This document shows, piece by piece, positions 15,063-52,842 of a stretch of DNA of 64,000 nt (the stretch's first letter is position 1; each line of letters begins with the position of its first letter). A program made the translations under genes and the position numbers. Location of the stretch: assembly GCF_003918875.1 (NCBI RefSeq), contig NW_025766503.1, forward strand, positions 496,001 to 560,000. The letters run 5' to 3'. The DNA is from Haliotis rubra. Lineage: Eukaryota. The notes beneath the pieces were generated by a model. That model was not told where the DNA came from, did no database searches, and saw only the letters and a list, made by a program, of their open reading frames with translations.

Positions 15063-16143
15063 TTAACGTTTAATAAGAGCATGCTTAATATAGTACGACA
15101 GCTTTATTATTACATGCTGGCCAGTTGATGAAAGAAGTAGTTTAAAAGCTAATGAAAGTGTCTTACATAAATAATATTCAGTTATATATTTCGTATGCAA
15201 AAAAGGACATACGAGTAGAAAATACATTTCATTTTCCACATCTAAATTACACAGAGGGCACATCCTCTTGCATCTTTCAATATAAAAAACTTCTTTCGTT
15301 TACCAATATATTGTTGATCAAGCCTAACCTAAAACATGTAACTGGATATCTTAATTCCTTTGATGTTAAAAGCGATATATATTTCTCTGGCTGAAGTAAT
15401 GATTTGTATATTCTATAAGAGTCATACTGTGAACTATTATCTATACTGAACAACATTAGAAACACACCACCCATATAATGCGAAATATTCCCGTCAGACA
15501 GAAATGTACCCATGGTATCTGAGCAGCGTCGGTGCATTTTAGTGTGGTGCATTTCTAATGTTGTTCAGTATATTACTGAATGCCCATTCTTGCTTAAACA
15601 TATTAAGACTTCTTTCACGAAACTGAGTTAAAAATAAACTTGCATCACCAACTGACTGGCTTAACCATACAAAACCATAACAATGTGAAAACAGAAGTTT
15701 TCTTACATAAGATGCCAACGTCACTTCACCAATGTTGTCCAAATGAATAAGCATGTCATAAGACTTTTTAGGCAATCTGTTTTCTTGCATACACAATATC
15801 TTAAACCAGAATTTTATACATCGAATATGAGCATTTATATACAGGGGATACTTGCCACATTCACCGTACACTATACAATTAGATGTAGATAGTCCAACAT
15901 TTAAAAACTTCTTACAGGCCATGAGATGTATTTTTCTATGCATTCATATCGCTGGAATCCCCAGATCTCGGATCCATACAAAAGAATAGGTTGAATTTGA
16001 CAATCAAATAGTATAAAGTAAATACTGGGCGTCAACACACCAATTTTATACAAGGCAGATAAAACACTTATCAATGCTTTCTTAGCTTTCAATGATAATT
16101 CAGGAACACGTGTTTTCCAATTCATAGTGGATGATACACTCAC
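15063..16143 (-). pseudogene. LINE ORF2 3' fragment (RT thumb to C-terminal Cys/His knuckle), same group as the 49-52 kb element
   Basis: QPILLYGSEIWG, VYGECGKYPL...IKFW, CPLCNLDVENEMYFLLVCPF; frameshifted. Confidence 0.85.
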
Positions 16144-16184
16144 TCCTCTTCGTCAGAGTACACATTAAACCGTACACATATTGT

Positions 16185-18556
16185 CGCACCTCACCGTTAG
16201 AGGACACAGTCAATAGACACACACACACACACTCCTCACCGTCAGAGGACACACCTCTCTCACCGTCAGAGGACACCACAACTCTCTCACCGTCAGAGGA
16301 CACGCACATCCCTCACCGTCAGAGGACACGCACATCCCTCACCGTCAGAGGACACGCACATCCCTCACCGTCAGAGGACACACATCCCTCACCGTCAGAG
16401 GACACGCACATCCCTCACAGTCAAAGGACACGCACATCTCTCACCGGCAGAGGACACACATCCCTCACCGTCAGAGGACACGCACATCTCTCACCGTCAG
16501 AGGAGACACATCCCTCACCGTCAGAGGAGACACATCCCTCACCGTCAGAGGACACACACATCTCTCACCATAGAGGACACACATCTCTCACCGTCAGAGG
16601 ACACATATCTCTCTCACCGTGAGAGGACACACACATAAGACAGCCATCGACTTCAGAGAACACACACATCCCTCCTCGTCAGAAAACACACATATCCCTC
16701 GTCGTCACACACATCCCTCGTCGTCAAAGTACTCACACATCCCTCGTCATCAGAGAACACACACACACCCCGTCGTCAAAGGACTCACACATCCCTCGTT
16801 GCCAGAGAACACACACATCCCTCATCGTCAGAGAACACACACATCCCTCGTCAGCAGAGAACACACACACGCACACCGTCGTCAAAGGATTCACACATCC
16901 CTCGTCTTCAGAGAACACACACATCCCTTGTCGTCAGAGAACAAACACATCCCTCATTATCACACACACATCCCTCGTCGTCACACTCATCCCTCGTCAT
17001 CAAAGGACTCAAACATCCCTCGTTGCCAGAGAACACACACATCCCTCATCGTCAGAGAACACACACATCCCTAGTCAGCAGAGAACACACACACACACCG
17101 TCGTCAAAGGATTCACACATCCCTCGTCTTCAGAAAACACACACATCCCTTGTCGTCAGAGTACAAACACATCCCTCATTGTCATACACATCCCCCGTCG
17201 TCAGAGAACACACACATCCCTTGTTGTCAGAGAGCACACTCATCCCTCGTCGTTACACACGTACCTTATCGTCAGAGAACACACACATCCATCGTCGTCA
17301 AAGGACTCACACATCCCTCCACGTCAGAGGACACATACATTTCTCACCGCCAAAGAACACACATCCATCGTAGTCAGAGGACACACACAGCCCTTGTCCT
17401 CAGAGAACACACTGATCCCTCGTCGTCAGAAACCACACATCCCTCGTCGTCAGAGAAACACACACATCCCTCGTCGTCACACACATCCCTCGTCATCAAA
17501 GGACTCACACATCCCTAGTGGCCAGAGAACACACACACCCCTCGTTGCCAGAGAACACACACATCCCTCGTCCTCAGAGAACACACACACCGTCGTCAAA
17601 GGACTCACACATCCCTCATCTTCAGAGAACACACACATCCCTAGTCGTCAGAGAACAAACACATCTCTCGTTGTCACACACATCACCCGTCGTCAGAGAA
17701 ACACACACATCAATCGTCATCAAAGAACACACACATCACTCGTCGTCAGAGAACAACACGCATCCCTCGTCACACACATCACTCGTCGTCAGAGAACACA
17801 CACATCCCTCACCGTCAGAGAATAAACACATCCCTTGTCGTCACACACATCCCTCGTCGTTAGAGGACACACACATCCCTTGTCGTCAGAGAACACACAT
17901 ATCCCTCATCGTCAAAGAACACACATCCCTCGTCATCAGAGAAGCACACACACATCCCTCACAGTCAAAGAACACATACATCTCACACCATCAGAGGACA
18001 CACAGCCCTCACCGTCAGAAGACACACCTCTCTCACCGTCAGAGGACACACACATCTCTCACCGTCAGAGAACACACATCCTTCGTCATCAAAGGACTCA
18101 CACATCCCTCGTGGCCAGAGAACACACACATCCCTTGTCGTCAGAGAACACACACATCCCTCGTCGTCAGAGAACACACATCACTCGTCTTCAGAGAACT
18201 CACACATCCCTCGTCATCAGAGAACACACACATCCCTCATCGTCAAAGGACTCACACATCCCTCTTCGCCACACATATCCCTCGTCATCAGAGAACACAC
18301 ACATCCCTCGTCGTCAGAGACACACGCAGCCCGTGTCGTCAAAGGACACACATATGAGAGGACACACATATACATCTCTCACCATCAGAGGGCACACACA
18401 TATATCTCCCACCGTCAGAGGGCACACACATACATCTCTCACCGTGAGCGGACACACATATACATCTCTCACCCTCAGAGGGCACACATATACATCTCTC
18501 ACCGTCAGAGAACACACACATACATCTTTCACCGTCAGATGGCACACACATACACC
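16185..18556. repeat. Complex CA-rich satellite (24-30 bp units, TCACCGTCAGAGGACACACAC / TCGTCGTCAGAGAACACAC)
   Basis: Direct inspection; it produces the His/Thr/Ser-rich spurious ORFs. Confidence 0.95.
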
Positions 18557-18608
18557 TGTTTTTTTGGGGGGCGGGGGGGTGTTGTTAAATAAATTTGGGT
18601 CGGCCATT

Positions 18609-18734
18609 TTGTTTTTATGACGTCTCATAGGTGTGATCTTTGTGTGACCTAATCGACTGTTGAACCCTTAAGCCCCACCCTCCTTCGGGAGTCCCCTTCC
18701 GGCACAGGTGTTTGTATGACCTTCAGGTTGACCT
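18609..18734 (+). repeat. Left inverted repeat of element B
   Basis: CTTTGTGTGACCTAATCGACTGTTGAACCCTTAAGCCCCACCCTCC...CCGGCACAGGTGT...CCTTCAGGTTGACCT is the reverse complement, with mismatches, of 28517-28629. Confidence 0.9.
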
Positions 18735-18906: not shown

Positions 18907-19095
18907 ATGGAAGCCGTTCACCGTGATATTCTGAGGAAGAATCGCTCTGGCCTAGTGCAAGCTATACAGCCTGTAGAAGAGGTGGTCGACAAACTGGTAC
19001 AGTTTGAAGTCCTTACCATCTTCATGAGGCAGAGATTATCGAAAAAACACAAACATCCTTTGACGGGGTCAGAGCCTTATTAGATATAATCCGGC
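18907..19095 (+). pseudogene. CARD domain, N-terminal two-thirds (5' part of CARD-PC4 gene)
   Basis: MEAVHRDILRKNRSGLVQAIQPVEEVVDKLVQFEVLTIFMRQ, a 1-nt frameshift near 19030, then EIIEKTQTSFDGVRALLDII. Confidence 0.8.
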
Positions 19096-19100
19096 AGCAG

Positions 19101-22100
19101 GTAGACATAACCTTGTTTTGATGTCTATAGTAGGTTTTTGTGTGGATTATGTTTGTTAAGACCACCGATATCAAGGGTAAGTTTACTGGACATCTGTCAG
19201 ATAAGTTATAAAAAACAAAATGGCCACCATTAGTTAAAGTGATTGCAATAAAATATTCTTTAAAAAGTGAACTATGAGAGTTGATTCGCACAAAATGGCA
19301 ATGTTATTATTGTGATGATGCTCTTTGTTCATTGTAACATGCAGTTGATGTCTGGTAAGCACAGAACATTGTGCATGGTAGTTTCGCACGGTTACATCCA
19401 CATGTTGAAGACTTGGGGTTTCACTTGAGCAGGAACACCTGATCATCTGTAAGATCTTACTTGGAGCTAGGGGACTGTCTGCAGGTACTGTTGTTGGTCG
19501 TAATGACTTCATACTCTGTTCTTTCATCCATCCATAGTCTGTGGCTTCCAACTTCTGAGGATCAAGTTGCAGTGCATTCTTCCAAAGAAAGGTTTGCAAA
19601 TGAGCTCTCTTGACATTTTCAGTGAATGCTTCTGTAGTTGGTAGCAGTAAGGCAAGCTTGGGAACATGTGTTATTCCAGGCTTCCCAATTTGAGCAGTCC
19701 ATACACTAACTCTTGCTTCTGTCATGGATGTAGCCATTGGCTGTCCATAACATTCAGCTGTGAATCTGGTCGCTTGCGCAATCACATCAGACCAATCTGA
19801 CCAATGTTGCCGATCTTGTCCACAGACACATTCTTTCCCAGCACTTTCAGCATTTTTCCTTTCCCTACTCCATAGCATGCTGCCACAGTGTCACAGCCAG
19901 ACAGAGCATGACCAGCCAATAATGATGGAATTATATCACGATGCTTCCCAACAGCAGCTTGTATATCAATTACCTTTCTCTCTTTAATAGGTGATGCCAT
20001 CACCATTGGTAATTGTAAGCCTTGTTGATGAGTAATGATGAACACAAGATGTTTTTTCATTCTCTCTCAGGATTGATAAATCTTCGGCCACATACATGCA
20101 GACTAAGTGCCCATGTCTTCAGAGTTTCGGGTTTCAGTGTAATGCCAATGATGCCAGATTTACCATGCCCATACCGCAAAAAAGTCGTCTCAATAAACAT
20201 GTCACTCCACAGACCATTCCATAATCCTGGTACATGCCGCATTACATGAGCACCCTTCATGAAGTGTTCTGGTATGTTAGCTGGCAACTCCTCCATGCTC
20301 CTCAGATAATACAGGCCATATCTAGCATAGTTGACGTGCCTAGATGCAAAGAAGTATGGCATCATCAGTTTCACTGCCTGCAGGTGTAGAGGCCAATCAC
20401 CTTCTCGCTCTGCTCGTACGTACAACATCATTATAAGGACTGGTTTTATGAACACATCAACCCACAGTTTTGAAGTGCGACTTTTGGATGCCAGGTCTTC
20501 AGGTACATTCATAAAATCATGATGGCCCTTCAGCTGAGTTTTACCAATAACATCTCTAAGCAGCTCCTCGGCAACCATGTGCATTTTTTCAACAACCTCC
20601 AGAGACAGACTTCAAAATTTCTTACAGGCCAGTCTCAGTCATCAATGTTCCAATAGCACCCACAAAACTCATCAGCATATGCATTCCACCCAATCTTGAG
20701 ATCAGATTTGGAAACAGATCTGGATGAGCCCACTGAATATCCACTGCAAGTTGTAGATTAGTGGTGAACACAGTGAAATTTTGTCCAATTGTTTCTGTTA
20801 ACTGCTGTGCTTTGCTCATTGCAGTCATGATGGTATCAGGATGAGCTGGTGGCATATCAATCAATTGTGGATTGTGGAGACATAAAATTCACACGACAGT
20901 TTTTGTGATAGCATGCATCAGCAGCATGTAAATCACTAACAGCTCCACACACCATGACTCTAACTTGAGATGCCCATTCATCACTCCGTTCGTCACACTT
21001 CTCAAGGATTTCTTGCTTCAATGACTGTTTATGTCTCATTCTTACAAATTGTGTGCAAATATAACCTGGCCTCCATCTTGAAGGATTTTTTGGATCCTTT
21101 TTAACTTGACATTCTTCCCGAAAATAACTACAGTGATGCTTAAAGTTAAATTTTGGGAGCTCAGACCATTTTGCTGTTTTTGGAGCAGGCACACCCACAT
21201 CTGCATCACCAACATGACGTTTCACAGCCTTTCGGACTTCCTTAGGATGAAGGTACTTTTCTACGCATACCTTGTGGGCTTGAAGGATGATACTTGAATC
21301 AATCTCAAACTGGGGCTGCAGTTTCACATGGTACAGCTGACTACATCTAATAATGTTCTGAATTCGCTTGGCCTTAATGTTAATGAGTCCCTTACTTCGT
21401 AGGGAATCATTGTATTTAAATTTCCAATTAAAATAGCACTCCCTCTCCATGGCACTTTATCTAAAACAAGAGATTTACAATAAGTTGCCATGTGAAGTGC
21501 CAATGCGACTGTTGCGTACTGATAAAAGGCCAATGCTCAGAGAAACAAGTGATCTCAAACCATTTGCCATATATAACTATAACGTAATGTGTTTTAAATA
21601 GAACAGGATGTCATTCTGTTTGTAGCAAGGTTAATATATTGACAGCAGTTAGCTGTACACACACATTCAGAATGTCTACATCCACGTTCACTTACAGCTA
21701 TTAACTTAATTAAGCTACCCATTCCTCTTTGAAATTAAAATATAACCACGCACATATAATTCAACTTACTTGGCTAAGCCTTGAAAAAAGACTGACCAAC
21801 ATGGTTGTATAATATTAATATTAGTATTCGACAAGCATGCATTCACCATCTAATGTATTACAGATAGAGCAAAAATTAACTTCCCAATGAAGTGGTTGTG
21901 GCCAGCTTTAAGTGATGACATCATCAGGAAGTACAGAAATGTGTGGTTGTTGTTGAGGAAATTTTGTTTAGTTTAAGTGACATTGTAATTTTTTACAGCT
22001 AGACACCAAAAATAGATACGTTGCTTATATACATAATTATGTTTAATTATATTCGCTACTACTCATAATGCTCAATGCTGATGGGGTCCAGTAAGACATT

Positions 22101-22186
22101 TTTCTAAATAGATGGTCTTGAGATGCAAAATTCACAAAAAAACTTACTACAGACACCAAAGCAAGGTTGTGCCCCAAAAGTGGAGC
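19101..22186 (-). mobile_element. Academ-type DNA transposon (internally deleted) inserted in the CARD gene; ends approximate
   Basis: Imperfect ~90 bp inverted repeats (from ~19106 and ending ~22171). Minus-strand ORF fragments carry RLGGMHMLMSFVGAIG, RAEREGDWPLHL...NYARY, HALSGCDT...GVGK (XPG-like) and a C-terminal Cys cluster. Confidence 0.75.
19300..21450 (-). pseudogene. Academ-type transposase/XPG/Cys-cluster polyprotein, fragmented
   Basis: ORFs 20857-21450, 20622-20864, 20057-20584, 19782-20060 and 19234-19878 are colinear pieces of one protein. Confidence 0.75.
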
Positions 22187-22807
22187 AGGCGAGGACCCCA
22201 AGCTTACACCCTCTTCTGTAAAGCTTTGGAGGAATGTGGAGAGATACAAGCTATGCCATTGCTGGGACTAGAGACAGACAAGACAGAGCTACAGGATCCT
22301 CGTTGTCATATAGACTTAGGCAATGACGTATTTGTGACGGCCAAGATGTGGAATGGAGAACTAGGAATTCGTGTAAGGAAGTACGATGTATATCCTAGTG
22401 AGAGAAGTTATCCTACCAAACGTGGTATTGTCCTGAGTTTGAAACATTGGCTGGAACTTCGTGGAGTCCATTTCAAGCTTCAGGAGGCCATCGATCAAGG
22501 AAGGACCCATGATTATGCTCATGTGGGTGCCAATATGTTTGCTACTTTGGATCCAAATGGTGGTGTGGATCTACGACAGTGGGAGAAAAATGAACAACTG
22601 GGAAGAGTGGTACCTACAGCTAAGGGTATCTTGTTGTCTAAACAACAATGGCAGAAACTAAGAGACTGTTGTGAAGTGATGACAGATTTCGTACCCGAAC
22701 TCAAAGACATGGTTCCCTGTATGGGACAAGAGGATCATCGAAACCAGATGGGAGCTTTAATGTGTTCCTTCTGTAATCCCAATGACTATGAATGTTGGAG
22801 TAACTGA
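22187..22807 (+). CDS. 3' part of CARD-PC4 gene: last CARD helices, two PC4-like ssDNA-binding domains, Cys/His motif
   Basis: RRGPQAYTLFCKALEECGEIQAMPLL (CARD end); IRVRKY...PTKRGIVLSLKHWLEL and VDLRQW...PTAKGILLSKQQWQKL (PC4 x2); C...DHRNQMGALMCSFCNP. Confidence 0.85.
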   Translation, partial: RRGPQAYTLFCKALEECGEIQAMPLLGLETDKTELQDPRCHIDLGNDVFVTAKMWNGELGIRVRKYDVYPSERSYPTKRGIVLSLKHWLELRGVHFKLQEAIDQGRTHDYAHVGANMFATLDPNGGVDLRQWEKNEQLGRVVPTAKGILLSKQQWQKLRDCCEVMTDFVPELKDMVPCMGQEDHRNQMGALMCSFCNPNDYECWSN

Positions 22808-23275
22808 CTATTTTTCTATGGATGGAAGTCTCCCTTCAGTAATTTTCATCCATGCACATTAGACATAGATAATCGTATGTTCAATTGTACTGAACAATAT
22901 TACATGTATTCTAAGGCAATTTACTTTGGTGATCATACACTTGCAAGTCGTATTTTACTAGAGACTATTCCGGCTAAGCAAAAACGTCTTGGGAGATGTG
23001 TGAAAGGCTTTACTCAGAAAGTGTGGGACACTGTCAGTCTTGATGTTATGACTAAGGCATTAATGGCTAAATTTTCCCAGAACAAAAATGACTTGAAACA
23101 GATATTGATTCAATCCTATCCTAAACAGTTAGCTGAAGCTAGACCCTTAAATAAAAGATGGGGAATAGGAATTGATGTTTCTCATCCTGATATTGACAAA
23201 CCCTGGAAATGGCCGGGGGAAAACCTGTTGGGAAAAACATTAATGTATGTCCGTGAAAGGTTGTTGTTGTTGTAA
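22808..23275 (+). CDS. NADAR (YbiA/DUF1768) family protein
   Basis: FFYGWKSPFSNFHPC...TEQYYMYSKA...QKRLGR...KFSQN...LAEARP.NKRWGIG...WPGENLLGKTLMYVRERL. The conserved N-terminus lies upstream of the ORF-track Met at 22877. Confidence 0.9.
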   Translation, partial: LFFYGWKSPFSNFHPCTLDIDNRMFNCTEQYYMYSKAIYFGDHTLASRILLETIPAKQKRLGRCVKGFTQKVWDTVSLDVMTKALMAKFSQNKNDLKQILIQSYPKQLAEARPLNKRWGIGIDVSHPDIDKPWKWPGENLLGKTLMYVRERLLLL

Positions 23276-23378
23276 ATATTGTCCTGTAAATAATAAATAA
23301 AATTATTGTATTTTATTTTCGTGTTGGGTTTTGTTTAAATAGCATGATGCATGTGAGTCATGTTCAGTCGTGTCTAAG

Positions 23379-24262
23379 ATGGCACCTTGGGAAGAAAACC
23401 TGAATAGGATCTATTACGATCCAAAACACGCTGGTAGTTATGCTGGACCAAAGAAGTTGTACGAAGCTGTGAACGCTGAGGGTCAGTTTAAAATTGGTCT
23501 ACATCATATCAAGAAATGGCTCAAAGGTCAGGAGAACTATACTATGACTCATCTAGTCAGAAGAAAGTTTCCAAGAAATGAGTATGTGGTCGAAGGTTTA
23601 GACAGTCACTGGCAATCGGATCTGATGGATATGGTATCACTTGCAAAGTACAACAATGGCGTTAAATACCTCCTGGTCATCATATATCTGTTTTCACGAT
23701 ATCTATGGGTGTATCCCACATATGGGTGTATTTACCTACAGATATGAGGATATCTTACCAGATGTAGTCAAGAGTTCCAACCACACGAAACATAGAATGT
23801 TAGGACAGTCTCCTGCTAGTGTGACTGAGAAAAATGAAGATGAAGTGAGACTCTCACGGTATTTGATTAAACCCTCAAATGTTAAACACAATAAAAAGAA
23901 GTTCACTTTCAAAGTGGGGGATAAGGTCAGAGTGAGTCATCTGAAGAGAACTTTTTGACAGAGAATACCAGGAGAAATGGTCTGATGAAATATTTACAGT
24001 AATAAGAAGATATTGGTCTCAAGGCAACGACTTGTACAAGCTTAAAGATTGGGGTGGTGATCCTATCGAAGGTGTCTTTTATTCATCAGAGCTTCAAGCA
24101 GTGGTAGAAAATCCAGATCAGGAGTATAGAATTCAAGACATTGTCAAAAAGAGGACCAGAAATAAACGATAAGAAGTGTTAGTGAAATGGTTCCATTGGT
24201 CTAAAAAATACAATTCATGGATCCCAGAAGGTGATGTGAAACAGTATAAAAGCACAACGTAA
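23379..24262 (+). pseudogene. Polinton retroviral-like integrase with C-terminal chromodomain; catalytic core deleted
   Basis: YYDPKHAGSYAG, WQSDLMDM...YLLVII, FKVGDKVRVS, EKWSDEIFTV, IEGVFYSSELQ, VLVKW...NSWIP; frameshifts and a stop. Confidence 0.92.
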
Positions 24263-24281: not shown

Positions 24282-24536
24282 ATGATGGAACACACTGAAG
24301 GAGCAGCATCTCTCATACGGAGTACATCATCTGACACCTGGACATTTTGGGGGAAAAAAGTGGCAAAAACAGAAACAGGGTTTCTCTCTCAGATAATCAT
24401 TATTTACATTTTAGTCATTACGTGTATTGTCAATTTGTCCTTGGACAAATGAAACTCCAATTTGTGGACAGCACTACTCAGTAGTAGTTTGGGATACTTG
24501 TTACCTAACCCCAAGATTAAATCTAAACATGGATAA
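24282..24536 (+). pseudogene. Small two-TM Maverick membrane protein (one internal stop)
   Basis: WTFWG...FLSQIIIIYILVITCIVNLSL...LWTALLSSSLGYLLPNPKIK. Confidence 0.65.
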
Positions 24537-25056
24537 AGACATTACGATCAGAAGTACAGATAGTGAACACCTCTATACCAACAACAAATCTTTTAACTTC
24601 AGAGTGGGTTTGAATGAACCATTACATCTTGATCAAAGGTGGAGGATAGGACTAACAGAAATATCTATATTGTCCTGGGACATAGATAAAAAAAATTCGG
24701 AAAGTCGTGACATATATGTCTATTCCTCATTGTGCGATTCATCATATGTTGGAGAAACAAAACAACCTTTACTCAGACATTTATGTCTCACGGGAAACCG
24801 AAAAGAATGTTCTTTTTCATTTTCTCAGTGTCAGTATGTCAGAGATTTTCAGACTGTGGATATCTATTCTAAAGACCATGAGGGCGATCCAGCTTCATTT
24901 ATTTGTGGACCAGTGACAATGACACTTCATCTCAAGCCGCTCACGTTTTCATCATTCATAATCATGAATACAAACTCTTCGTACCCGATGCCGATAAATG
25001 GACACGGTTTTACATGTTCCAGGCTGAAGGGAAAGGAGATCCTTATCATGCTATAA
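24529..25056 (+). CDS. Short minor capsid (penton-like) protein
   Basis: STDSEHLYTNNKSFNFRVGLNEPLHLDQRWRIGLTEI...IYVYSSLCDSSYVGETKQPLLR...VTMTLHLKP. Confidence 0.75.
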   Translation: MDKDITIRSTDSEHLYTNNKSFNFRVGLNEPLHLDQRWRIGLTEISILSWDIDKKNSESRDIYVYSSLCDSSYVGETKQPLLRHLCLTGNRKECSFSFSQCQYVRDFQTVDIYSKDHEGDPASFICGPVTMTLHLKPLTFSSFIIMNTNSSYPMPINGHGFTCSRLKGKEILIML

Positions 25057-25346: not shown

Positions 25347-26980
25347 ATGCAGTCAACAACGTGTCCCATGTGCTATCAGACTTTTTCCAGAAGGGATGCC
25401 ATGCTTAGACATCTCAGGAATCAACACAGACGAGCAACACAGCCAACAACACAAGCACCACCACCACAAGCACCAGAACCACCACAAGTACCATCACCAC
25501 CACCACCACCACCACCACCACCAGCACCACCACAACCACAAGCACCACCAGCACCACCACAACCACAAGCACCACCACCACCACCACCACAAGCACCACC
25601 ACCACCACAAGTACCATCACCTATGATGCAACCAGTGCAACCACATTCATCAGAAAGTACTACCCAGTCATTGGAAGAATTTAGGCTGCGACTTCCATTC
25701 ACCATGATCGTCTCAGGGCCCACCTCCTGTGGGAAAACCTACTTAGTGAAGCAGGTTCTAGAAAGGATGAAAATTAAACCTTATCCTGAACGTATTATAT
25801 GGCTCTACAAACGATGGCAGCCACTGTATAACATCATTCAAGCCTGTGTTTATCCTTACGTTGAATTTCATCAAGGCATTCCTTCTCACCTCAAAAAGGA
25901 TGCGTTTCTGGACCCCAGTGTTGTGAACGTGGTTATCCTCGACGACTTAATGTCTACTGCAGCAAAGATCCATGCATTACAGATCTGTTTACAGAAGGAA
26001 GTCATCATCGTAATCTCTCAGTGATAGCCTTGAACCAGAATTTGTATTTCAGTAAGGATCCCACACACCGAAGAAACTGTCATTATCTGCTTCTGTTCAA
26101 CAACCCTATCGATCAACAACCCTTTGACTTTGGTGAGGCAAATGTATCCAGGTAACACAGACCATTTCATGGAGCCATTTCAAAGGGCTACCCAGAAACC
26201 TTATGGATACTTGTTGGTTGATGTAAAACCCCAAACACCTCCCCATTTGCGACTTTGTCCTAATGTGTTCAGTTTAAAAGGAGGCCTCAAAGCTAGGACA
26301 ATTCAGTCCGAGTTAGACGTTCAGAGTGAACAGACGTGTGAAGAAAACCTCCCAACAATGCCATCTTGTGATGACTGTGGACTCGTGTTTCAGACGAAGT
26401 GCATGATTTGCAAAAACATAGAAGAAACTGGTGTCCTGAAAAGTCTTCAGTGGGTCCACCTGGAATACCCCCAAGTTAAAAGGAAGTGGGAGGAAGACGA
26501 CAACTTCTCTGCTGTGAAGAGACCACGTCCTCTGTCAGATTGTGACTATTGTGGTCAAGTGTTTAGCAATAACCACAACTTACAAAGACATTTACATGAT
26601 AAACAATGTCCTGAAATGGAAAATGATGATGATTATGATGCTGTATCGTTAAGCGATGTCACACAAAACAACAGGAAAAATAAGATGGCTGATCTCGAAG
26701 AGCAAGGTATAAGACAAATGTATTCACGTACACGTGAGCTGAATAAAAAACCTTTTGGATGAAAAACGACAGCTGTACAGGTTTACACGAAGACATGATT
26801 CAAGCCAAACTGAAAAAATTCATCTGGAGCACATTTAAAGAGACGTATTACTTATCTGTATCATATGCAGTGGGGTCCAAAGACACAAGGAATACTGAAA
26901 GGTGTAGGAGGCAGAAATAATCTGAATCATGACGTGTTTTCCAAACTGTACCAATATAAATCTTGTTTCTTAATGTAATG
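25347..26980 (+). pseudogene. A32/FtsK-like packaging ATPase with N-terminal C2H2 finger and Pro-rich linker, followed by further zinc-finger-like sequence; frameshifted
   Basis: CPMCYQTFSRRDAMLRHLRNQH; Walker A GPTSCGKT; Walker B VVILDDLM; FTEGSHHRNLSVI; PYGYLLVD; CDYCGQVFSNNHNLQRH. Confidence 0.88.
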
Positions 26981-28516: not shown

Positions 28517-28629
28517 AGGTGAACCTGAAGGTAACACACACCTGTGCCGGAAAGGAACTCCCAAAGGAGGGTGGGACTTAAGGGTTCAACAGTCGATCAG
28601 GTCACACAAAGGTGACGCCATAAGAACAA
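28517..28629 (-). repeat. Right inverted repeat of element B
   Basis: Reverse complement of 18609-18734. Confidence 0.9.
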
Positions 28630-28786
28630 NNNNNNNNNNNNNNNNNNNNNNNNNNNNNNNNNNNNNNNNNNNNNNNNNNNNNNNNNNNNNNNNNNNNNNN
28701 NNNNNNNNNNNNNNNNNNNNNNNNNNNNNNNNNNNNNNNNNNNNNNNNNNNNNNNNNNNNNNNNNNNNNNNNNNNNNNNNNNNNNN
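28630..28786. other. Assembly gap
   Basis: Run of N. Confidence 1.
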
Positions 28787-29165
28787 TCAGAGGACACACG
28801 CATACATCTTTCATCGTCAGAAAACACACACATACGTCTCTCACCGTGAGGGGACACACACATACATCTTCCACCGTCAGAGGACACACACATACATATT
28901 TCATCGTCAGAAAACACACACATACGTCTCTCACCGTCAGAGGACACACACATACATCTCTCACCGTCAGAGGGCACACACATACATCTTTCATCATCAG
29001 AGGGCACACACATACATCTCTCACCGTCAGAGGACACACACATACATATTTCACCGTCAGAGGGCACACACATACATCTCTCACCGTCAGAGGGCACACA
29101 CACATCTGTCACCGTCAGAGGACACACACATCCCTCGTCGTCACAGAACAGACACAAAATCACAC
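28787..29165. repeat. 30 bp satellite, continuation of the 16.2-18.6 kb array
   Basis: TCACCGTCAGAGGGCACACACATACATCTC units match those at 18355-18555, same orientation. Confidence 0.95.
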
Positions 29166-30022
29166 ACACATGTCCATATGTGTCCTCTCACACGTACTTT
29201 CATGATGTCAAGAAATATCGTTGGCGTTATTGAAAGAGGCCAGGCGTTAAGTTATCCATACATTTAAGTCTTTATACATATCCGTATATGAATCCACCCG
29301 ATGTGGAGATGCAGCATGTACCATCCCAGCATCACACCTCTCAGTGAAAGGTGTTACTACAGCGCACATACTGACCCTGATACCGATCAATACCATGTGG
29401 ATACGGCAGCTCCCGATACACACTCATATCCATAGTCACACACAAAGGCGAGGGTAAGTAAATACAGTACCTTTTCATTACCTATGTCGGTCTTCTTTCT
29501 AAATCGGAAGTCCATACAAAAATAATGTAACCTTGTATATATTCCCTTTATACAATGAATAGTTTTTTACTATTTTTCATCTTCGCTCATCTTCAGCTGT
29601 TGACCCATAAAAACCGTTTTCGACTCTGCCTCAAAATTTGAAAATTACCCTGGGATAAAACGTCAATCTGAAATTAGTAATGCCGTCCTATGGGATAAAG
29701 ACGTCAGTGGATAAAGAGAGTTTTATCATAAATATTCCAACCTAATGTATTTTGAACTAAGGGCTAAATGAAACCTTAAAAACATATTTCCTTAATGTAT
29801 ATGAATAGTTATTTTCGTTCAGCTTAGTGACCAAATTCTATTAGACCCCAGGTAAAACAAACAAGGCACAAAATGCACCTCGATGCCATTGTTACAGTTG
29901 CCTGTAGGCTATAATGTCAATAGATCCCACTGGCCACTTTGAAGATATTTACCTTCAGATTACCTTCACATAATCCTATGTTGTTATGCTGTTTTGTTGT
30001 CCTTGCTAGCTGATGTGTTCCC

Positions 30023-49144: not shown

Positions 49145-52100
49145 AGAAGAAGAAGAAGAAGAGCTTTATTCAGTATTTAAGGCCACATGACCAAAAGTAC
49201 AATTCAATATGCAAAATATAGAACATGGTCAGGAGAACAATTTACAATTTATACAGGTAAATATAGTTTAAGATAAATTGCAATATTTTTTAGGAGTTTT
49301 ACATTCTTTGTTGCAAGCAGCTGGGTAAACTTTGATCTGGTTGGAGATATAATATAAAAATCAGGAATATACAAAGAGCGTTGTTGTGAATAAAATGGAC
49401 ATACGAGTAAGAAATGATACTCATCTTGTATCAAATTACAATTACATTTATCACATTTAATGGAATCAGCATTTACCTTATTAAAACGGTTGTGTTGATT
49501 TTTAAGTTTATGACTCATGCATCTGAATTTAAATAAAACTCGTAAGAGATCTTTATCATAGCAAAACTCTGATATATATTTTTCCGGTTCAAGTACAGAT
49601 TTATATGACGAGTAATGATTTAAGAATGATGAAGAAGTGATTTTTGCATACCAATTCTGTATATCTATATCTTTACATCTCTGTTTAAAAACACTTATAA
49701 AACTTGTTACATCGCCACAATCTTGCGATAACCACACAAAAGAAAACCCAGAGTGAAATAAAAGTAAACGTACATGGGATACCCAATTGCGACCACCATT
49801 GTCGTCGTATGTTTTTAACATCTCATAGCATGCCTTTGGAATACGATAACTTTCCATATTCAGGAGTCTACACCAGTACTTTATACAACGGGTGAAATAC
49901 TGTACACAAAGATGGCTTCTACCTGTTTCACCAAGTACAATATTTGAAGATACAGTTTTGCTAACACGAAGATATCTTTTGAAATAATAAGTTTGTAATT
50001 TTTCAATGTTTGCACGATAGGTAAACCCCCATATTTCTGCACCATAAAGCAGAATCGGTGCAATTTTGCTGTCAAATATAGTAGATGCCACATTCAAAGA
50101 GATATTTTGATAAGTTCTGAAAAGAGAAAATATCGGAAATGAAGCCTTCCTAGCTTGTAAAGCTAATGTTTCACATGCTTTAGACCAGTACAATTTTGAT
50201 GTGAAAACAATACCAAGATATTTATAATGAGATAAAACCTTCATGTTTGTACCATCATAAAGCCATTTTTCGTTATTTCGAAGATAGCCACCATTCCTGA
50301 AAACAATAATGCAGGATTTATCTAAGTTAACTTCTAGACCCCATTTGATACAAAATGATTTTAATGTATCCAGCTTTTTTTGTAAACCTATTACTGTGTC
50401 ATCAATGAGAGTGACGTCATCTGCGAATAACCATAAAAGTATATCATTCATACCATTTTTCACAAATATTCCACGTAGGCCACGTGCATTCATTTCATCT
50501 ACTAATTCGTTGATAAAGAAAATGAACAGAACAGGACTGAGAATACATCCTTGTCGTAGTCCAGATGTTGTCGAGAATACTTCTGTTCGTACACTAGATA
50601 TTTTCACACAAGCAGATACCTTATCATACATATTTTTGAGGATTCGTATTATTTTCCCATGCATACCTTTGGAGATAAGAGCATATAAAAGCTTGTTTCT
50701 GTCTATATAATCAAATGCCTTCCGAAAGTCAATAAAAGCTGCGTAAAACCGATGTTTACGTTTTCTTAAATACTTTTGGCATAGAGCTTGCAGAACGAAC
50801 ATATTATCAGCTGATGAGTAACCGGGCCTAAACCCTGCTTGACATTCATGTAGTATATCGTTTAAATCTAACCAGATACGGATTCTGACTTCGAGGATAG
50901 AAGTGAATATTTTCCCCATTACATTCAACAAAGAGATTCCACGATAGTTATTTGGTTCGTGAGTGCTTCCTTTTTTATAGAGTGGAATGATCAAGCCAAC
51001 ATTCCAGATATCAGGGAAAATGCCGCTGTCCAGTATAGCATTAAACAATATTTCTAGGTAGGGAAGTATGCATTGAGAATGTTTGAAGAATTTGGGTGGT
51101 GTTCCATCAATACCTGGGGATTTACCAGATTTTAACACTTTGATTGCATTTTCTATTTCTGTTCTGGTAATTGGTGCAGATAAAAAGTCAGTATTGTTAC
51201 AGTCCGCACAGTAATCATGCTGTGTCAAAAATGCGTCAACATTCTCATTGAACTCCATATTTGTTTCCCGACACGTCGGGTTTAACAAATTCTTAAAATA
51301 TGTCACCCACTTATCTGCCGTAATTGTGTTATTTTCATTACAATTGCTCAGTAGAGATTTTATCTTATGCCAGAACTTCTTACAGTCACCACTTTTAGCT
51401 GCACTCTGAATCTCATCAGCAATACCACCGTTAAACATTCTACTTTTATTTCTGCACAAGAGGCGAAAGTGTCTCTTTGCTTCAATGTATCTGTTTAGAT
51501 TTTCATTTGATCTGCATTTGCGGAACATATTAAGCCAGTAGAACTTATATCTTTTTGAACTTTCGCATTCTTCATCAAACCAATTAGGTTGAATATTCTT
51601 TGATTTAGGGATCTGAACATCACGACATTGAAAGTGACTTCCCACGAAGTGGAGAAACTCAACAAGTTTCTCGGTGGCACCATTGATATCAGAATAGACT
51701 AGATCAAGAAACTCATCTAATATACAACTCGCTGTACTAGACGCTACAGACTCATTGAACTTGTCTAAACCACCATTATTCCACCTGAACTTTGCGAGTT
51801 TTTCACACTCTACATGACGAACACTGGTTAATAGCGAGTTATCACCACAATCCTCGACGGATACCTCTACAATGCACGATAGAGGCAGGTGGTCAGAGTC
51901 TGACCGCGAGTGGACAAACATATCCCTAATCAAGTAAAAACAGCTGGTCGACGCCAATATAAAATCAACAAGGCTTGAGCCATTGTGTGTGATACATGTA
52001 ATAGACCCAGTTTCATCGCCTTGTGTCCTACCATTAACTATATGTATACCCCATACCTTGCACACTTCTAGCAGAGCCAGGCCATACATATTCACTGTAG

Positions 52101-52842
52101 TGTCTTGTGTTACTCTAGTTTCACTGAAACTGTCGGGAAGATACAAATCTGATAATGGTAAGAAGTTCAAATCACTATCATCTTCCAACAAATAATCATC
52201 GTTTGAGCCCACCCTCGAATTGAAATCACCTAGCAGTATTATAGGAATAGCATCACCGTAATCTGCTCTAATAGTAGCTATTTTAGAATCAAGCTCATCA
52301 ATGCCATTAGAATCTGGGTCAACATAAAGTGGGGATCCTTCTGGTAGTATGTAAAGGAATCCAGCAATGAAATTTCTCTTAAAGTGAAAAAAGACGCTAT
52401 TCTCCCAGTTGGGATATATTCTTTGGAAAACCTTCTCAAACGATTTTCGGATATAAACAGCCACGCCCCCAGAATAACGACCATATTTCCGTAACCGTTT
52501 TGCCGGTGATGCATGACATATAAATTTGTAAATAGACCATAAAGCGTAGTGGAATCGCTTTGCATCGTTTCTAAAAGACCAAAAATGTCAAACTGTGCAC
52601 AGAAATCCATAAATGAATTATCTTTTAGGTGCGAGTGCAGGCCATGAATGTTCCACGCACACATGTTCAAGTTCTTGAAGACATCAGTCCCCGAGTCTTG
52701 AGGAGTAGATCTTGTGTCCAGATCAGGGTGTAGGTCACGGCCGAGTTCCTAGGCTGAAACAGACGCCCCCTGGGTGTCCCTGACGCCGCTCCCCCGGGAC
52801 CCAGGAGGCGTCCCTCCATGGGCCCCGTGAGGACTGCGCAGC
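49145..52842 (-). mobile_element. 5'-truncated LINE (APE-RT; RTE-X-like, clade uncertain) with 15 bp TSD
   Basis: GAAGCAGCGAGTAGA at 49130-49144 and 52843-52857; AATAAA and (TTC)n 3' tail. Confidence 0.92.
49249..52670 (-). CDS. LINE ORF2: AP endonuclease + reverse transcriptase + C-terminal Cys/His knuckle; one frameshift near 52500
   Basis: WNIHGL, LGDFNSR, SDHLPL, YRGISLL, FIDFRKAFD, GLRQGCILSP, LFADD, YKYLG, DEYHFLLVCPFY. Confidence 0.95.

Follow-up and report, generated by a model that had tools for sequence, protein, structure and literature searches.

UGA followed by CUA is the type II readthrough signal of Sindbis, chikungunya and Providence virus, with efficiencies of a few per cent, and readthrough at UGACUAG has been described in human genes (PMC13517186). 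The 3' structure of type II sites follows a spacer of at least 8 nt and is conditional for UGACUA; viral 3' stimulatory structures start at +9 to +16, and the extended stem-loops are 78-177 nt long (PMC13517186). Polinton/Maverick elements have terminal inverted repeats of 100-1500 bp, target site duplications of 5-8 bp and a length of 13-25 kb, and they encode a retroviral-type integrase, a protein-primed DNA polymerase B, a packaging ATPase, major and minor capsid proteins and a maturation protease (bioRxiv 10.1101/2023.08.22.554363). YbiA-type NADARs are able to remove ADP-ribose from guanine, and E43, K50 and E125 have assigned roles in the NADAR of structure 8BAU (PMC11543638). In clams, CARP-1 is an enzyme that modifies guanine, and molluscs also have NADARs (PMC11543638, PMC11125620). 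Reversal of CARP-1 marks by NADAR is assumed there, not shown, and orphan NADARs may have other targets (PMC11543638). The roles of orphan animal NADARs and the marking of foreign DNA by base ADP-ribosylation in animals are open questions (PMC11543638, PMC11125620).

We analysed a stretch of 64,000 nucleotides from the abalone Haliotis rubra (the window), in which a mobile element carries a NADAR domain in frame behind the stop codon of a CARD-PC4 gene (Table 1). The parts of this arrangement are known singly: the CARD, PC4 and NADAR domains, Polinton-type elements that have captured genes, and type II readthrough. Their combination was not found in open-licence papers searched by title or abstract start. 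The NADAR cargo is solid and unusual, its recoding is plausible, and its function is putative.

Table 1. Features of the element and of the PC4-NADAR junction, in window coordinates.
Feature	Position	Strand	Evidence
Left terminal inverted repeat; outer end not fixed, as its partner meets an assembly gap	18609..18734	+	
CARD, 5' part of the CARD-PC4 gene; frameshift near 19026-19047	18907..19100	+	PF00619 E 1.8e-4; tblastn XP_046544611, two frames
Decayed DNA transposon inserted in CARD; worn inverted ends, DUF6589-like ORF fragments; ends approximate	19101..22186	-	
CARD end, two PC4 repeats, C-terminal Cys/His motif	22187..22804	+	88% identity with H. rubra XP_046544611 (206 aa aligned)
26-codon ORF that opens with ATG in another frame and overlaps the junction; basis of the frameshift alternative	22782..22862	+	
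UGA-CUA, candidate type II readthrough site	22805..22810	+	sequence; motif class after PMC13517186
NADAR, YbiA-type (E29, K36 and E110 retained; motif following E110 privately changed at two sites)	22808..23275	+	profile, model
Predicted 13-bp hairpin, +13 from U of UGA, -13.2 kcal/mol	22817..22854	+	folding
AATAAA after NADAR	23292..23297	+	
Retroviral-type integrase remnant, three frames and a nonsense codon	23370..24262	+	rve E 0.004, under the curated cut-off
ORF for a candidate Polinton minor capsid protein	24526..24940	+	Pfam and Atlas blank
C2H2 finger, proline-rich stretch and packaging-type ATPase, frameshifted	25347..26762	+	Adeno_IVa2 E 3.2e-4, Walker A
Right terminal inverted repeat, cut by N gap 28630-28786	28517..28629	-	

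The terminal inverted repeats are about 125 bp long, and their arms at 18630-18715 and 28534-28619 are 90% complementary. The element measures 10 kb between them, or about 7 kb without the inserted transposon. A protein-primed DNA polymerase B is absent from the stop-to-stop frames of at least 110 aa between the repeats and from a Pfam scan of the main ORFs. A major capsid protein and a maturation protease were not seen between the repeats either, where small decayed pieces could escape. Judged by its gene content, the element is Polinton-derived and either non-autonomous or deleted; it is not a full Polinton/Maverick member, because the polymerase, protease and major capsid ORFs were not seen and only about 7 kb remain. 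Its closest named proteins come from H. rubra and H. asinina, and for the PC4 part there is a similarity to Atlas clusters from Mollusca and Preplasmiviricota (scores of 0.86-0.87, to be read as a lead only). CpG stands at 0.44 in the element genes versus 0.91 and 0.72 in the flanks, a depletion as expected of old methylated DNA. Contigs from four runs align to the stretch, 181-515 per run, and these hundreds of contigs per run indicate a multi-copy family. The C2H2 finger and a low-complexity proline-rich repeat (25347-25640) are fused in frame to the ATPase remnant, with more fingers at 26360-26600. Minisatellite units of about 30 bp lie in the same orientation on both sides (16100-18560 and 28787-29200), which suggests that the element was inserted into a minisatellite array. 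The window as a whole is animal DNA with LINEs and minisatellites, including a nearly intact LINE ORF2 at 49252-52748 (-) with endonuclease and reverse transcriptase in 1112 open codons. Positions 1-5600 hold another virus-like element, richer in GC and with several long ORFs on each strand; a Pfam scan of four of these ORFs was blank. Its regions 1-363 (-) and 1413-2700 (-) look like the disrupted gene for the major capsid protein of a Polinton-like virus, and the element may be younger, since its CpG is not depleted.

The CARD-PC4 gene of the window is broken. The 3-kb transposon in the CARD has a weak DUF6589 match (E 4e-4) and strong CpG depletion (0.31). The apparent start of the PC4 ORF, ATG 22112, sits within this insertion, and similarity to XP_046544611 restarts only at 22187; a start at 22112 was rejected as transposon sequence. 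Sister contigs have loose ends at 22193-22196 that run on as CARD-like sequence where the window has the transposon, and Haliotis records such as XP_046544611 read CARD, PC4, PC4 as an uninterrupted single ORF. As read from these sequences, CARD-PC4-PC4 in sister copies is a real fusion. The window copy is dead, and no three-domain protein comes from this locus because of the CARD frameshift and the 3-kb transposon. Thus the CARD-PC4-NADAR protein that the initial annotation had proposed keeps its first half as a fusion in sister copies and is lost as a product of this copy.

The end of the PC4 protein is shared among relatives. The terminal Cys motif is reached by 12 of the 18 Haliotis records listed. 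Nine of these 12 end in WSN, which gives the position, though not the codon, of the stop; the other three comprise one with another tail, one partial record and one from a distant family. The WSN-ending subfamilies, from H. rubra and H. asinina, are 65-88% identical to the window, and four of six distant relatives end no more than one residue from the same Trp column. These shared ends indicate that the stop is the protein's natural end and not a recent nonsense change, and a recent nonsense mutation in a fusion gene was rejected on this ground. The terminus (window 22700-22790) has a conserved C-x5-H-x8-C-x2-C pattern for which zinc binding is possible and on which Pfam scans placed no model. 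At least seven near-identical CARD-PC4 models of H. asinina have neighbouring accessions (XP_067687007-XP_067687021) and contigs of equal length, one of them named caspase-2-like; they may be element copies arrayed in tandem, or else a domesticated cassette.

The NADAR behind this stop is a whole domain. It matches PF08719 over profile positions 2-162 of 163 (142.4 bits, E 1.9e-41), and its AlphaFold model has a pLDDT of 97.5. In a Foldseek search with the model, the Phytophthora NADAR 8BAU (E 2.7e-9, TM 0.89) and E. coli YbiA (2B3W, TM 0.81) were the sole matches at E < 0.001. E29, K36 and E110 align with E43, K50 and E125 of 8BAU, with an inferred numbering offset of two. Among the other ADP-ribose contacts of 8BAU (R79, W89, R93, D130, W133), three of five are kept, and the equivalents of R93 and D130 are lost in this copy. 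Of 140 homologues, the motif could be read in 124 (16 were unreadable), and 121 of these 124 have Asp at the D130 position. The two changes in the motif after E110 are absent from nearly all the sister depth. The host itself has an annotated NADAR (XP_046578080), a tandem one unrelated to the element type; the element NADAR is 40% identical to it and nonetheless keeps E29, K36 and E110. In a quick tree of 71 rows, built with the best 70 of 156 full-length matches, the window protein fell in no well-supported group. LGRCVK occurs both in the NADAR and in the tail of H. asinina XP_067653366, a match that was set aside at E 0.004 only.

Searches for a coupled protein gave the following. Protein searches found no element-type NADAR as an annotated protein, and a word search for NADAR alone at 85-272 aa gave 19 candidates, of which none was scored. 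This absence fits a gene without a start codon, and it is also expected of a separate ORF taken for 3' UTR. A PC4-then-NADAR fusion was found neither in the best 150 matches of one protein search nor in the 37 matches of another; the latter covered the range of 350-430 aa, and long PC4 fusions of 474-2000 aa gave none among 7214 candidates. In viral contigs, the NADAR query matched two distant loci, both without PC4, and the PC4, PC4 alignment, ATPase, integrase and junction pattern queries had no matches. A metagenome scan for the junction pattern gave ten loci, all ten chance matches without PC4 or NADAR, and the prokaryote genomes searched gave no matches. P0027 (358 aa, on a 3-kb contig) has a NADAR followed by a degenerate, weak PC4-like part, recognised by BLAST only, with the same terminal Cys motif. 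Its order of domains is the reverse, and by sequence it is a possible independent coupling of NADAR and PC4.

The junction itself reads exactly as the initial annotation had described it: the PC4 frame ends in TGA 22805-22807 and goes on in the same frame as CTA TTT TTC TAT GGA TGG, with the NADAR (profile score as above) open for 155 codons downstream of the stop until TAA 23273-75. UGA with CUA is one of the two hexamers, the other being UGA with CGG, that type II readthrough requires. Within the element, 6 of 229 TGA triplets are followed by CTA, which makes the hexamer alone roughly a 1-in-40 event. The ATG at codon 24 (22877) of the NADAR frame is replaced by other letters in sister contigs, and the next in-frame ATG, at codon 33, lies downstream of E29 and the first strand, including F3 of the N-terminal strand, which is invariant in 21 of 21 aligned NADARs. 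A +1 shift at the stop was rejected, as it leads into the 26-codon ORF. Programmed -1 frameshifting uses an X XXY YYZ heptamer and a spacer before a stem; this canonical form was rejected, as the heptamer is absent and the stem follows the T run without a spacer.

The main alternative to readthrough is that the NADAR is a separate gene, translated from the overlapping ATG by reinitiation or from an internal promoter, and cut off from that ATG by a one-base slip in the T run; UGA-CUA would then be a by-product. Two ATGs of the overlapping frame (22782 and 22788) lie 20-26 nt ahead of the end of the stop, with the frame open into the T run. The initial annotation had pointed to this frame, and its ATGs are indeed present, while as the DNA stands it gives only the 26-codon ORF, closing at 22862. 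The many frameshifts of this copy (CARD, integrase, ATPase) give a high prior for another one, and the conserved WSN ending could reflect overlapping coding. On the other hand, the residues that the ATG frame would place before the FF strand match the homologues less well: against 99 homologue columns they score -6.2 bits, and the in-frame residues -2.1 bits. Against readthrough, Trp and Arg were not seen in the homologue column that corresponds to the stop, where Cys is near neutral.

A slip in the T run should be visible in sister copies. Among the 32 contig pieces listed (1583 others exist), three cross the junction, and good bridging was taken to need 31 letters to the left and 31 to the right of the complete junction. 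Contig X4 record 19, about 96% identical, aligns at 22783-22966 with all 184 letters, seven mismatches (two unplaced) and no gaps; shifted by one base, 24 of its 28 left-hand letters mismatch. It is the sole X4 contig counted at four sites in 22850-22879. Contig X1 record 2, about 80% identical, aligns at 22599-22830 without gaps, and shifted by one base it mismatches in 12 of its last 15 letters. Each has one arm under the 31-letter bar, X4 record 19 with 22 letters to the left of TGA and X1 record 2 with 15 beyond the T run on the right. The third, X7 record 22, bridges well, but with 18 gap letters, net +4, whose positions are not given; it fits either model, and its net change, which is not a multiple of three, may be counted for a slip. 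In X4 record 18 the alignment ends inside the T run, which also speaks for a slip; compared with X1 record 2, its following stretch has one letter fewer. Against it, the two gap-free contigs keep the register, and no T-run indel is present in the 12 best-supported of 107 indel rows. Loose ends at the T run are absent from the 24 listed of 361, and substitutions at the stop from the 40 listed of 512. Synonymous and non-synonymous counts on 30 of the 40 listed sister differences are 5 and 9 in NADAR and 6 and 10 in PC4; they reflect mostly this copy's own decay and were not used. Sisters keep other letters at the altered motif sites, which suggests that the NADAR is maintained in a family with this register.

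From these alignments, the register of the window is probably the common one in its subfamily. The initial annotation had made a different T-run length in sister copies the point against readthrough, and neither of the gap-free contigs across the junction, each with its one short arm, shows a changed register. It had also called an overlapping start equally plausible; since two gap-free contigs keep the T-run register, the balance has moved somewhat towards readthrough and away from a lesion confined to this copy. We regard a separate gene cut off by a slip as unlikely overall, though it is the alternative to be taken most seriously. A slip in the founder of a sublineage, which then spread as a non-autonomous family, is rather improbable, and a slip in this copy alone is highly improbable.

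A second alternative is that the NADAR is a passenger, captured without a start behind the natural end of PC4 and in frame by chance (1 in 3), with a basal leak at most and no selected function. The natural end of the PC4 family at this stop, with most of the distant relatives ending at or next to the Trp column, agrees with such a capture, as does the failure to find a fused protein in the collections searched. However, PC4 is likewise followed by NADAR sequence in a subfamily with about 80-85% identity (X1 record 2, X4 record 18), and in-frame NADAR can still be read from the loose ends of contigs that are more distant. The three kept residues E29, K36 and E110, at such distance from the host NADAR, are hard to explain without selection. 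A passenger thus appears quite improbable. Very unlikely is a NADAR made from spliced or internally started RNA: the stop lies in CTGAC, which resembles the branch-point consensus, and AG acceptors end at 22828 (AAG, phase 0) and 22839 (CAG, phase 2, preceded by a run of pyrimidines), but both lose the first 7-10 NADAR codons, including strand residues 2-3 and the invariant F3, which match homologues, and the pyrimidine content before them is just 0.57-0.64.

Signals around the junction were compared with those of readthrough sites. The predicted hairpin is 38 nt long and follows the stop codon after a 9-nt spacer. Among the structures behind the element's 317 stop-like triplets it is the most stable (the top two matches are both this hairpin). 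Its z is -2.5 for 70 nt and lies between -1.1 and -1.5 for longer pieces. When the same peptide was recoded synonymously 1000 times, 101 versions were as stable, and thus the hairpin may follow from the protein sequence. As a 3' stimulator the predicted hairpin is suggestive, not significant. The only other AATAAA in 22180-23400, at 23150, overlaps a base that sisters do not share. The first shared AATAAA is therefore downstream of the NADAR, which suggests a single transcript.

The reading we prefer is that alphavirus-type UGA-CUA readthrough produces a minor CARD-PC4-NADAR protein in the family, and on the sequences compared here we consider its chances evenly balanced. The junction would be a family trait of an abalone Polinton-derived element and not damage to this copy. 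A single transcript would span CARD-PC4-PC4 and NADAR and reach as far as the poly(A) signal at 23292. On it, most ribosomes would stop at UGA and release CARD-PC4-PC4, while a few per cent would decode UGA, aided by the CUA context and perhaps by the +13 hairpin, and add the NADAR hydrolase. PC4 is a single-strand DNA binder, and CARD has a death-domain decoy role. In the short form, PC4 would coat single-stranded element DNA and CARD would serve as a decoy. The minor long form might bring an ADP-ribose-removing enzyme to single-stranded element DNA. Such a counter-defence role is inferred on top of what we infer for readthrough. The story as a whole is doubtful in its entirety: abalone Polinton-derived elements would employ UGA-CUA readthrough, with a 3' hairpin, to produce CARD-PC4-NADAR protein in a fixed small proportion, and this protein would bind element ssDNA and erase host guanine ADP-ribosylation.

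If true, it would place programmed readthrough on a Polinton-type DNA element, and it would mean that molluscs use DNA-base ADP-ribosylation of the CARP-1 or PARP type against mobile DNA and that the element carries the eraser as a counter-defence. If readthrough alone holds, a recoding signal of RNA viruses and cellular genes would be extended to Polinton-type elements, and the absence of element NADARs from annotations would be explained. With NADAR, CARD and a domain that binds single-stranded DNA side by side on a mobile element, abalone mobile DNA is a likely arena for this enzyme.

The locus can be compared with four kinds of described systems. It resembles Polinton/Maverick elements in its terminal inverted repeats, retroviral-type integrase and packaging-type ATPase; it differs in size (about 7 kb versus 13-25 kb) and in carrying CARD-PC4 and NADAR. 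The Haliotis CARD-PC4-PC4 proteins in RefSeq (XP_046544611, XP_046573532, XP_067687021 and others) have the same architecture and last residues as the window protein, at 65-89% identity, whereas they are uninterrupted, have NADAR in none of the records and are annotated as uncharacterized host genes. These 'uncharacterized' Haliotis CARD genes are probably element cargo. With the YbiA-subfamily NADARs, 8BAU of Phytophthora nicotianae and 2B3W of E. coli, the window NADAR shares the fold, the last-strand glutamate and the equivalents of E43, K50, R79, W89, E125 and W133. In contrast to them, it has lost the R93 and D130 equivalents in this copy, has no toxin partner and stands behind a stop on a mobile element, and its substrate is putative. 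Compared with type II readthrough systems, the candidate site lies on a DNA element in a mollusc genome, its seventh base is U and not G, and its predicted hairpin, not significant against synonymous recoding, has 38 nt versus 78-177 nt in the viral extended stem-loops. With alphavirus and Providence virus readthrough it has in common UGA-CUA, an in-frame downstream domain and a predicted stem from +13.
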